Positions 12,776 to 55,187 of a stretch of 64,000 nucleotides of DNA are shown here, piece after piece. The notes beneath the pieces are model-generated. The model did not search any database, was not told the DNA's origin, and worked only from the letters and a program-made list of their open reading frames with translations. Every line of letters starts with the position of its first letter. Within the stretch, counting starts at the first letter, position 1. The position numbers were made by a program, and so were the translations under genes. The DNA lies in IMG/VR virus record IMGVR_UViG_3300020577_007535, positions 1,401-65,400 of that record. The stretch is one strand, 5' to 3'. Source of the stretch: a virus (Duplodnaviria; Caudoviricetes).

Positions 12776-12799
12776 GATGGCAAAAAAGATCTTGCTATC
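12776..12799. promoter_or_regulatory. Palindromic operator, copy 1 (GATGGCAA-N8-TTGCTATC), overlapping a likely -35
   Basis: Imperfect inverted repeat also present at 17438 and 51007. TTGCTA-17 nt-CATCAA lies upstream of the ATG at 12828. Confidence 0.75.
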
Positions 12800-12827
12800 G
12801 CATAAGTCGTAGGGCATCAATTGACCC

Positions 12828-13103: not shown

Positions 13104-13220
13104 ACGCAGACCTAGGACCCCCTTGAAGCGTTCGAGCGGCGCGCCGCTCGTCCTATCCCCTGCCGCGGTGTGGGGCTCCATTGGGCGCACTCACGCGCCA
13201 ACTTTCACAAGGGGATACCG

Positions 13221-13640
13221 ATGCTGACCATGAAAGAAATTGCCGAGCAAACAATGGAAGACCTCAAAGCGCGCATTCATGCTGCTGTCACCAGCGCGGC
13301 AAGCGCAACCGAGGTAGCGGCCGAGCTGCGCGATACGGTCCGGATGGCGCTCGCGGCCAAGATGGGCAAGGGCGTGCTGCTGCGCGACCGCAACACTGAC
13401 GAGGCGGTACCGGCCGATGGGTTCGCGGTGTTCGAGCAGTGGGCCGTCAGTGATAGCGACTCGGTGACGTGGTACCCGACCGATGGGCAGGCGCTGGCTC
13501 ACCTGCACGAGCTGGGCATGCGGCATCACCGCCAGGTCGAGATCATGGACCAGGGCCGCGCCCAGGTCGATCTGACCGCGGACGGGTGCAACATGTCGCG
13601 GGCCTACTACGTGCGGGTCAAGAAAGGCCAGCAGCTGTAA
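13221..13640 (+). CDS. Hypothetical protein
   Basis: SD-like AAGGGGA precedes the ATG at 13221; coding-like sequence. Confidence 0.6.
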   Translation: MLTMKEIAEQTMEDLKARIHAAVTSAASATEVAAELRDTVRMALAAKMGKGVLLRDRNTDEAVPADGFAVFEQWAVSDSDSVTWYPTDGQALAHLHELGMRHHRQVEIMDQGRAQVDLTADGCNMSRAYYVRVKKGQQL

Positions 13641-13668
13641 GGCGAACAGCCGGGGAGACCCGGCACAA

Positions 13669-13782
13669 GGGGCCGTGGTGTAGGGAACGAGCCGCAGCGA
13701 GGCGTACGACGGACTGCGAGGATGTCCCAGGAAGCACACAGCGGTGATGCTTATGGTGCGGGTTCAACTCCCGCCGGCTCCA
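13669..13782 (+). ncRNA. tmRNA/tRNA-Ala-like mini-RNA (tRNA-like domain without an mRNA-like domain)
   Basis: 5' GGGGCCG pairs with 3' CGGCTCC-A, giving G3:U70 and discriminator A. The T-arm GCGGG-TTCAACT-CCCGC is the tmRNA-type 3' end. It is intergenic and 114 nt long, with no encoded CCA. Confidence 0.7.
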
Positions 13783-13801
13783 TCTACCGGGAGGACCATC
13801 A

Positions 13802-14134
13802 ATGAAGACCGAAAAGAAGGGCATGACGTTCCGAGACCTCAAGGCAGCTATCGGCGAAATGGATGAAGCGCAACTCGATCTGCGCGTTCTCTGGGCCGGG
13901 GACGAGCGCGGCGGGGTGGTTCATATGCTCGATATCCTCAAAGAGGACCACATCAATCCGTCTGGGGAATGCTGGGAACCGCGCAGCGTGTACCTGGACC
14001 CGATCAAAGAGAAGATCAAGAACTTCGAGGGAACACCGGAAGAGCTGGCCGACCTACAGGCCGAGCTTGAGGACTACGAATCGGAGCCCGTTGTCGGCGT
14101 CAAGGGACAGGGCGTTCTGGCTGTCGATCTGTAG
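13802..14134 (+). CDS. Hypothetical acidic protein
   Basis: GGAGG SD; coding-like sequence. Confidence 0.65.
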   Translation: MKTEKKGMTFRDLKAAIGEMDEAQLDLRVLWAGDERGGVVHMLDILKEDHINPSGECWEPRSVYLDPIKEKIKNFEGTPEELADLQAELEDYESEPVVGVKGQGVLAVDL

Positions 14135-16724: not shown

Positions 16725-17434
16725 ATTCCGGCGATAGTTGCCTGGTGCTCCCCACCGGCAAGGGCAACAAGCGCCGCACCGCGGTCGTGCTCGAGTCCTG
16801 CGACAAGAGCTGCAAGGTCAAGTTCGATGACGACGACAGCGAGGAACGGGTGAGCTGCACCAAACTGCGCCCGCTGGGTCGGCCCAAGGCCGCGCCGCCG
16901 CCGGCCGAGTCTCCGGCTGAACCGATCCGCTGGCGCACCGGGCCGCTGCCGCCCGCTGGCTCAGATGGTCAGCCGGCCAAGGCGGGGCCGCAGCCCAAGC
17001 CCGAGCCGCCCGCGCGGTCCGAGGCTTACAAGGCGTTCATCCGGCGCCAGCCCTGCTGCAACTGCGCCCGCGACGGCCTGGTGAGCGAGGGCCTCTCGGA
17101 CCCCGACCATGAAGGCCCCCGCGGCGTCGGTCAGAAGACCTCAGACTTTCTGACGATCCCGCTCTGCCGCCCGTGCCACCGCATCATCACCGACACGTAT
17201 TGCCTGCCCGCGGCGTATTCCAGGCTCTGGGCCAAGCCCATCCTCGAGACCCGGGCCTGGACCGAGGTGTTTATCCAGATGACCCAGGCCGAGCTGCTGC
17301 AGCGGGTGCTGAGCAGTCTGGAGCTGGGCGATAGGCTCAAGGCGCTCGAAGTGGCCGTGCGCACCCTGGATAGCAAAGTCTTGGCCGCGGCGCTTATCGA
17401 TATGACGGGCGCGGACTCTGAGCAGAAAAAGTGA
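16721..17434 (+). CDS. SH3/Tudor-like domain fused to a DUF968-like Zn/HNH-type domain
   Basis: N-terminal SCLVLP...AVVLESCDKSCKVKFDD beta-barrel pattern; C-terminal YKAFIRRQPCCNC...DPDH...QKTSDFLTIPLCRPCH. Confidence 0.6.
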   Translation: MNSGDSCLVLPTGKGNKRRTAVVLESCDKSCKVKFDDDDSEERVSCTKLRPLGRPKAAPPPAESPAEPIRWRTGPLPPAGSDGQPAKAGPQPKPEPPARSEAYKAFIRRQPCCNCARDGLVSEGLSDPDHEGPRGVGQKTSDFLTIPLCRPCHRIITDTYCLPAAYSRLWAKPILETRAWTEVFIQMTQAELLQRVLSSLELGDRLKALEVAVRTLDSKVLAAALIDMTGADSEQKK

Positions 17435-17437
17435 AGC

Positions 17438-17461
17438 GATATCAAAAATAATCTTGCTATC
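17438..17461. promoter_or_regulatory. Palindromic operator, copy 2 (GATATCAA-N8-TTGCTATC)
   Basis: Extends to GCGATATCAA...TTGCTATCGC; intergenic, upstream of 17491. Confidence 0.75.
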
Positions 17462-17490
17462 GCTTCAGCCGCAGGAGTAAGAGGTTGGCA

Positions 17491-51006: not shown

Positions 51007-51030
51007 GATAGTAAAAAAAATATTGCTATC
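51007..51030. promoter_or_regulatory. Palindromic operator, copy 3 (GATAGTAA-N8-TTGCTATC)
   Basis: Same motif as 12776 and 17438; upstream of the lipoprotein pair. Confidence 0.75.
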
Positions 51031-55113: not shown

Positions 55114-55187
55114 TGCGGTGTGGCGCAGCCCGGTAGCGCATCTGGTTCATACTCAGAGTGTCGGTGGTTCAAATCCACCCGCCGCAA
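55114..55187 (+). tRNA. tRNA with anticodon CAT (Met / fMet-derived / Ile2 unresolved)
   Basis: Full cloverleaf: acceptor TGCGGTG/CGCCGCA, D-arm GCGC-AGCCCGGTA-GCGC, anticodon arm TCTGG-TTCATAC-TCAGA, T-arm GGTGG-TTCAAAT-CCACC. TTGACA at 55074. Confidence 0.9.

Follow-up and report, generated by a model that had tools for sequence, protein, structure and literature searches.

Does an RNA that carries the alanine-identity ends of tRNA-Ala and tmRNA, but neither an anticodon nor a message, represent a gene of its own when it lies between two protein-coding genes of a phage, and to which family would such a gene belong? The question is raised by a 114-nt element of the window, i.e. the whole stretch of 64,000 nucleotides analysed here, which is part of an IMG/VR virus record of 65.4 kb with 67% GC and an estimated completeness of 69% (CheckV). 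The record encodes a terminase, a Mu-like portal, a protease and capsid, and tail genes. No close cultivated relative of it was found by blastn against GenBank phages or by comparison of portal and TerL; the sole match of the portal is Myxococcus phage Mx4 (24%), and the TerL proteins nearest to that of the record belong to actinophages (around 36%). TerL relatives with 41-56% identity are present on the contigs L002-L006, where no such RNA element occurs within 6 kb.

Locus and anatomy of the 114-nt element

The element is located inside a rightward operon, adjoining structural and accessory genes, in a gap of 161 nt between the end of an ORF at 13640 and the start of the next gene at 13802. 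Both flanking genes have coding-type GC3, and the RNA fills the gap exactly, with its 3' end 7 nt ahead of the downstream SD (Table 1). No promoter-like or terminator-like site proper to the RNA was seen at this operon-internal locus, and the DNA contigs of the sequencing runs contain no variants inside it. The protein encoded upstream has only distant homologues, found on the contigs L246-L248, in which no tRNA-like element is present. The protein encoded downstream has no relative among the viral contigs, and its homologue P0003 (83% identical) lies on L015, a metagenome contig of about 2 kb.

Table 1. Position of the tRNA-like RNA, its parts and the flanking features in the window.
Feature	Position	Strand	Remarks
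Upstream ORF	13170..13640	+	156 aa, no family; stop codon 28 nt 5' of the RNA
Leader hairpin GCCGGG-GAGA-CCCGGC (GNRA-type loop) followed by ACAA	13649..13664; ACAA 13665-13668	+	Fold -14.1 kcal/mol, z = -4.2
Anticodon-less alanine-identity tRNA-like RNA gene, 114 nt, no encoded CCA	13669..13782	+	
Acceptor 5' strand GGGGCCG	13669..13675	+	G1-G4 as in tRNA-Ala/tmRNA; pairs with 13775-13781; G3 with U70 (13779)
Linker UGGUGUA, single-stranded, D-loop analogue	13676..13682	+	U8 and A14 as in tRNAs; constrained fold
Arm 1, predicted irregular 12-bp hairpin with 16-nt loop	13683..13728	+	GGGA/UCCC, CG/UG, CCGCAG/CUGCG.G; pair probabilities ~0.5-0.8
Arm 2, predicted extra hairpin AAGCA-CAC-AGCG-GUG-A-UGCUU	13732..13752	+	8 bp, one bulge, tetraloop; pair probabilities 0.85-0.98 (constrained ensemble)
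Spacer AUGGU, 5 nt, like a tRNA variable loop	13753..13757	+	Replaces (G)NAC of tmRNA TLDs
T arm GCGGG-UUCAACU-CCCGC	13758..13774	+	
Acceptor 3' strand CGGCUCC and discriminator A73 (13782)	13775..13782	+	
Downstream gene	13789..14134	+	SD GGGAGGA 13789-13795, ATG 13802; 110 aa, no family

The two ends of the element combine into a minihelix of 12 bp, made of acceptor and T arm, with G1:C72, G2:C71, G3:U70, G4:C69 and A73. All 12 pairs are perfect and the T loop is canonical, so that the acceptor (GGGGCCG/CGGCTCC-A), the G3:U70 pair and the T arm are as a first-pass annotation, made from the letters of the DNA, had described them. No CCA is encoded after 13782, where TCT comes next. The same annotation had called the D-loop essentially stemless and had seen neither a canonical anticodon loop nor a recognisable tag ORF, and these claims hold: there is no credible D stem in TGGTGTAGGGAACGA, directly 3' of the acceptor 5' strand, a 7-nt anticodon loop is absent, and the lone frame inside the RNA lies in predicted helices. 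A scan of both strands for any T arm combined with any 7-bp acceptor returned the element, a tRNA-Met at 55114, and one further match that lies inside a gene and is probably due to chance. In 300 first-order Markov simulations of the window, with the ends 40-140 nt apart, a T arm and 7-bp acceptor with G3:U70 and A73 occurred 0.003 times per window, compared with one observed.

The fold of the centre is less firmly placed. When acceptor and T arm are fixed, a four-way junction with two hairpins is favoured (-44.1 kcal/mol), in the order UGGUGUA linker, arm 1, AGG, arm 2, AUGGU and T arm. The first-pass annotation had instead proposed a closing helix (GAGCCGC with GCGG..GCTT) and had listed alternative pairings beside it. 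The helix (GAGCCGC/GCG..GCUU, enclosing about 45 nt) is possible but not favoured, as it reaches -33.7 kcal/mol, i.e. about 10 kcal/mol worse, and CGCAG/CUGCG, one of those alternative pairings, is used in the favoured fold. The unconstrained fold of the whole molecule is no more stable than that of shuffled sequences (z = -0.09), and thus the inner structure of the RNA is a prediction only. As the inner 82 nt have no look-alike among the sequences compared, arms 1 and 2 are also without comparative support, and they may be either tolerated insertions or add-on binding sites.

Annotation tools pass over the locus. ARAGORN in default and tmRNA modes finds nothing at 13669-13782, and ARAGORN in default mode, like Rfam at the gathering threshold, reports only the tRNA-Met at 55114. 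With loose settings, the Rfam tmRNA model (RF00023) aligns locally with the T arm only (model positions 347-363), at 13.5 bits as compared with a cut-off of 47. At E values up to 10 on 13500-13950, the remaining Rfam matches are chance ones (tmRNA_permuted with 18 bits, and others), and mt-tmRNA is not among the models listed.

Two readings would nevertheless fit the element into a conventional gene type. ARAGORN with the option -i reports, at its default threshold, a 76-nt tRNA-Ser(CGA) whose anticodon loop would be interrupted by an insert of 38 nt; its anticodon stem, GCCGC/GCGGU, is the closing helix of the first-pass annotation. Such a tRNA would have its insert at 33/34 with G in place of U33, a D stem of two Watson-Crick pairs, one G:U and one mismatch, a variable loop of 12 nt, and a fold about 10 kcal/mol worse; moreover, the RNA found on L015, with its 59 nt, is too short for it. 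Bacteria are not known to have an enzyme for short tRNA introns, and we give this intron-bearing tRNA hardly any credence. The other reading is a true minimal tmRNA, with a resume codon GCA at 13695, a stop UGA at 13746 and a 17-residue tag AARRTTDCEDVPGSTQR, for which an open frame (GCA GCG ... CGG UGA) is indeed present inside the RNA. The tmRNA mode of ARAGORN, however, remains negative at this locus even at a threshold of 70% (ps70), the frame is buried in predicted helices, neither a pseudoknot nor a resume context upstream is present, the tail lacks the hydrophobic ..AA character, and L015 has no equivalent. A tag-encoding molecule is thus equally hard to credit.

The related slot on contig L015 and the conserved leader

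Contig L015 was reached through the neighbouring protein and not through an RNA pattern, and its RNA was then found by a pattern-free scan. This RNA is 59 nt long (426-484) and reads GGGACGG ... GCAGG-UUCGAUU-CCUGC-CCGUUCC-A, with a centre composed of the 8-nt linker UACUGGUA and one hairpin of 19 nt directly adjoining the T arm; with respect to it, the window RNA has a longer hairpin and one added. The search for covariation in homologues that the first-pass annotation had proposed is answered by three pairs that changed on both sides, namely acceptor pair 4 (G:C to A:U), acceptor pair 6 (C:G to G:C) and T-stem pair 3 (G:C to A:U). Three of the 12 pairs are therefore doubly changed and none is broken, and G3:U70 and A73 are kept. 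These compensatory changes indicate that the slot holds a selected RNA gene, whose core, to judge from one ortholog, is an alanine minihelix with a linker and a hairpin; as the ortholog is a single one, selection on G3:U70 rests on two sequences.

The similarity extends upstream of the RNA. A 22-nt block CCGGGGAGACCCGGCACAAGGG (13650-13671) is identical in L015 at 406-428, between flanks that cannot be aligned. In the window, the leader consists of the hairpin and ACAA and then runs into the GGG of the RNA, and the same CCGGGGAGACCCGGCACAA leader precedes the RNA of L015 (405-425). The leader hairpin with ACAA could serve the RNA module in processing, stability or protein binding. Directly 3' of the 59-nt RNA, at 485-567, L015 also contains a branched structure of 83 nt, in which CCCACCCC...GGGGUGGG closes two hairpins (-45.5 kcal/mol, z = -4.2, none of 200 shuffles as stable), with no counterpart at that place in the window.

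The comparison with L015 also bears on the possibility that the element is a decaying pseudogene of a tRNA-Ala, or of a mini-tmRNA, that acquired insertions in the D and anticodon region and lost its function. The first 15 nt resemble a tRNA 5' half (12/15 identical to a mycobacterial tRNA-Ala), the inner 82 nt are unique, the relative that is closest by neighbour gene has a far shorter RNA, and the fold does not exceed that of shuffles, all of which would suit decay. On the other hand, the 12 pairs of acceptor and T arm are intact and the T loop is canonical, the changes with respect to L015 compensate each other so that both helices are kept, the leader is conserved, and 114 nt of dead sequence are rarely kept in a tight phage operon. 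We therefore consider a pseudogene quite improbable.

Sequence searches in wider collections gave no direct homologue. Neither 901 nt nor the 114 nt themselves found one in GenBank phages by blastn, the only matches being ssrA/attP ends of 25-28 nt in proteobacterial phages. The T arm of the window RNA is identical in sequence to the one in E. coli ssrA, in agreement with the ssrA matches. Among viral contigs, exact patterns for the 5' 25 nt, the leader, or the loose end of a possible relative had no match. Likewise, the pattern GGGGCNGTGRTGTA..GGTTC retrieved neither a relative nor a host from genomes, its matches being mostly archaeal or planctomycete tRNA-Pro-like genes with inserts, in addition to chance upstream matches. 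A 5.9-kb contig of the riverine metagenome run X2 matches only 13759-13783 (2 differences) and an 18-nt piece (13309-13326), past which it diverges into GTATCGCTGAGGAATGAATGACC; the run X1 has the same loose end. This contig may be a diverged relative with a related RNA.

Many phages use ssrA 3' ends as attP, and the short blastn matches are of precisely this kind, so that one may ask whether the T arm and the 3' acceptor strand were copied from a host gene used for integration (the 3' end of ssrA or of a tRNA), with a 5' strand that pairs by chance. No tyrosine integrase, serine recombinase or rve transposase (PF00589, PF07508, PF00665) is present in the 65.4-kb, 69%-complete record, though, a complete 7-bp 5' strand with GGGG is in place, the acceptor of the ortholog differs in sequence and still pairs, and the position is operon-internal, beside structural and accessory genes. 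An attP remnant is thus very improbable. The tag-ORF, intron-tRNA and attP readings were all rejected.

Position among message-less tRNA-like RNAs

A natural term of comparison is the 'TLD only' (CDS-less) tmRNA published for mycobacteriophage DS6A (tmID 11587, Phage__Mycobacterium.9; PMC4131195; PMC11915505). The passages of these papers that cite Mao et al. 2009 describe strong inhibition of tmRNA by a similar molecule, with titration of SmpB as a possible mechanism. In the phage genome, the element spans 80 nt (JN698994, 28478-28557) between gp33 and gp34, the latter encoding DNA polymerase III, and is unannotated in GenBank; DS6A also encodes an RtcB-like RNA ligase (gp76). The RNA of DS6A resembles that of the window in being phage-borne and intergenic, in its acceptor (GGGGCCG/CGGCUCC) with G3:U70 and A73, in its canonical T arm, and in lacking a D stem, an anticodon, a tag frame and an encoded CCA. 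It differs in its 80 nt and in a single hairpin, which is preceded by a D-loop analogue of 14 nt with GAC at its end and followed by a GCAC spacer. In the 114-nt RNA, the linker has 7 nt, a 46-nt arm is joined by the additional hairpin of 21 nt, the spacer is AUGGU, and the GAC/AC motif is missing. Hence the window RNA lacks the signature of the DS6A type, namely ..GGU..GAC, one P2a hairpin, and (G)NAC on the 5' side of the T stem.

In viral contigs, a pattern scan retrieved 57 loci; of the distinct sequences among them, about 35 are anticodon-less mini-RNAs of 67-90 nt, within a family on which the scans imposed the acceptor and T-arm pattern. The consensus of 27 phage minis reads GGGGCCG-nnnn-GGU-nnn-GAC-[hairpin]-G-nn-AC-[T arm], and its GGU..GAC ... 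AC motif is missing from both the window RNA and the L015 RNA. In tmRNA this region is the one contacted by SmpB, and binding of SmpB is therefore less certain for the window RNA than for that of DS6A. A covariance model (R1) built from the 27 minis, with acceptor and T pairs only and no inner hairpin, scores the window RNA at 38.7 bits (E 2.5e-5), the L015 RNA at 37.4 bits and the genuine tRNA-Met at 19.3 bits; the seeds were picked by a pattern that the window RNA also fits, so that its score is partly circular and only that of L015 is independent. The check with ARAGORN and Infernal-type models proposed in the first-pass annotation is negative with ARAGORN in default and tmRNA modes and with the Rfam models, which remain below threshold. 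MAFFT gave no structurally consistent alignment of the short class with the RNA of the window or with that of L015.

Fragments of the window RNA nevertheless recur in short viral elements. In particular, the 28 nt U13757-U13784 are identical in the 80-nt elements L188 and L191, and the base of arm 1 (GGGAAC...GUCCC) is common to the 68-nt elements L186 and L168. In addition, the leader CACAA resembles the ..ACAAC of L186, L179 and L192, the UCU trailer resembles the UCY trailer of L168, L179 and L192, and the first 14 nt are found again in a set of tRNA-like RNAs (L152, L158/L181 and L193) that vary in their cores and measure 70-105 nt. The 68-69-nt elements (L186, L168, L179, L192), the 80-nt ones (L188, L191) and the 59-nt RNA of L015 all have alanine identity, as does the window RNA. 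The short minis and the RNA of L015 (59-80 nt) have one hairpin each, placed directly or almost directly next to the T arm. The window RNA differs from them by a longer arm 1, which occupies the place of the P2a-like hairpin of short phage mini-tmRNAs, and by the added arm 2 with its linkers; arm 2 has no counterpart in L015, L186 or DS6A.

These relatives are also of relevance for a reading in which the fold serves as a processing signal ('t-element'). RNase P and the 3' tRNA-trimming enzymes would be recruited in order to cut the operon transcript, leaving the downstream mRNA with a 5' end 7 nt before its SD, and charging would be irrelevant. A locus inside an operon at which no separate promoter- or terminator-like site is seen, a 3' end so close to the next SD, the very stable 83-nt structure (z = -4.2) that follows the mini RNA of L015, and a conserved leader hairpin that could belong to a processing module are all consistent with it. 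RNase P, however, has no need for G3:U70, A73 and G1-G4, and the full alanine set is kept in both orthologs though two other acceptor pairs changed. Moreover, some of the 68-nt relatives have clear promoters of their own, such as the sigma-70-like TTGACA-17-GATAAT of L192, and are thus stand-alone RNA genes. We regard a purely processing role as unlikely, although it retains some weight.

The ends of the element had been taken in the first-pass annotation as the hallmark of tmRNA. They are present, but are equally those of tRNA-Ala, and the tmRNA D-loop/P2a signature of the 27 minis is absent. The TLD of bacterial tmRNA (RF00023) shares with the window RNA the alanine acceptor (G3:U70, A73), the T arm and the lack of a D stem. 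Unlike bacterial tmRNA, the window RNA has no mRNA-like domain, pseudoknots, long P2 helix or GAC/AC motif; only 82 nt separate the acceptor 5' strand from the T arm, which leaves no room for the pseudoknots and the long P2, and no mRNA-like domain with resume codon, tag frame and stop was found. With tRNA-Ala, the window RNA has in common G1-G4, G3:U70, A73, U8, A14, the GG of the D-loop and the T arm, and its 5-nt spacer resembles a tRNA variable loop. It departs from tRNA-Ala in its 114 nt and in having no D stem and no 7-nt anticodon loop; the canonical D stem and the anticodon arm with a 7-nt loop (U33) of RF00005 are absent, and tRNA finders refuse it. The message-less tmRNAs of mitochondria and plastids also consist of a TLD without a tag frame, but are AT-rich and of about 65-100 nt (PMC11915505).

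Taken together, we favour, with a probability of roughly 0.55, the view that the phage has here a true gene for a tRNA-like RNA of alanine identity, which lacks both anticodon and message and would represent an expanded variant of the DS6A-type TLD-only class. Of the message-less alanine-identity phage RNA put forward in the first-pass annotation, the gene itself is upheld, with a slot conserved in L015, and the attribution to tmRNA is weakened by the missing GAC/AC. Since U8, A14 and the GG with the 5-nt spacer look equally like tRNA-Ala and tmRNA, the 114-nt RNA is filed as an expanded variant of the class and not as a tmRNA.

Other extended elements were encountered on viral and metagenome contigs. 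L126, L051, L010, L008, L007/L011/L012 and L009 are RNAs of 104-120 nt that resemble tmRNA and begin as tmRNA typically does (GGGGCUGAUGG.UUCG..), so that extended message-less forms are not unique to the window. Nine metagenome elements, mostly from soil (L018, L030, L052, L062, L071, L077, L080, L097 and L115; 107-124 nt), start with GGGGCCGCAGCAYGAG and, in alignment A3, have an alanine acceptor, a T arm and a closing helix CCCGC/GCGGG, within which GGGGUU/AACCCC and UUGCUCG/CGAGCA interleave as in an H-type pseudoknot; they look like a TLD with a PK1-like knot and no obvious tag. Finally, in the tRNA-like genes L017, L043, L045, L087 and L093 (about 120 nt), L092/L086 and L040/L114, the acceptor stem is Ala-type (G3:U70), the D arms are normal, and the anticodon region is enlarged by inserts of 35-50 nt; some of these genes lie on human-gut metagenome contigs, and they may be intron-bearing or expanded tRNAs.

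A possible role in infection

Trans-translation is the main ribosome-rescue and quality-control pathway of bacteria, and for several phages it is a requirement or a limitation. Mimicking the tRNA-like head of tmRNA alone would be a cheap route for a phage to tamper with this pathway. AlaRS needs only an acceptor/T minihelix with G3:U70 for charging, as reported for the alanine minihelix of Francklyn and Schimmel. EF-Tu binds the acceptor/T stack, and a message-less TLD can occupy SmpB but cannot resume translation. Along these lines, the RNA of the window would be excised from the operon transcript by RNase P and 3' trimming, receive its CCA from a host enzyme, and be charged with alanine by AlaRS. 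The alanylated RNA could then bind EF-Tu and/or SmpB and, being message-less, would compete with the host tmRNA, so that trans-translation and ssrA tagging would be damped during infection. The decoy of SmpB or tmRNA to which this leads, also suggested in the first-pass annotation, is the published proposal for the 'TLD-only' tmRNA of DS6A (PMC4131195, PMC11915505), a closer precedent than the jakobid forms named in that annotation. The concept is thus already known, and what is unusual here is the size and shape of the window RNA.

More speculatively, arms 1 and 2 may be functional, in which case the molecule would be an alanine-charged scaffold with added binding sites and not a passive sponge for SmpB. 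It might then work as a message-less rescue RNA that delivers a single alanine and releases stalled ribosomes with no degradation tag added; alternatively, the two arms might bring a phage or host protein to an alanyl donor or decoy. We hold such a scaffold to be a long shot; if the arms were functional, it would constitute a new functional class of phage tRNA mimic.

As regards the single locus, the claim is modest, i.e. one more, unusually large, member of the class, known from sequence. In the literature searched, DS6A is the sole case of such an RNA, as compared with the dozens found here in viral contigs, which annotation tools leave uncalled. The same minihelix tolerates large insertions (total lengths of 59, 68, 80 and 114 nt), which sets limits on the functional core, and the size series offers natural variants for recognition by AlaRS, EF-Tu and SmpB.

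As for the control of the operon, an earlier report of a third copy of the motif TTGCTATCGC, at 51007, was not confirmed by a repeat search. The motif occurs at 12792-12801 and 17454-17463, in two intergenic regions 5' of rightward genes, the second copy being part of a 14-nt inverted repeat (17432-17467), and may be an operator or a -35 element of the RNA-bearing operon.
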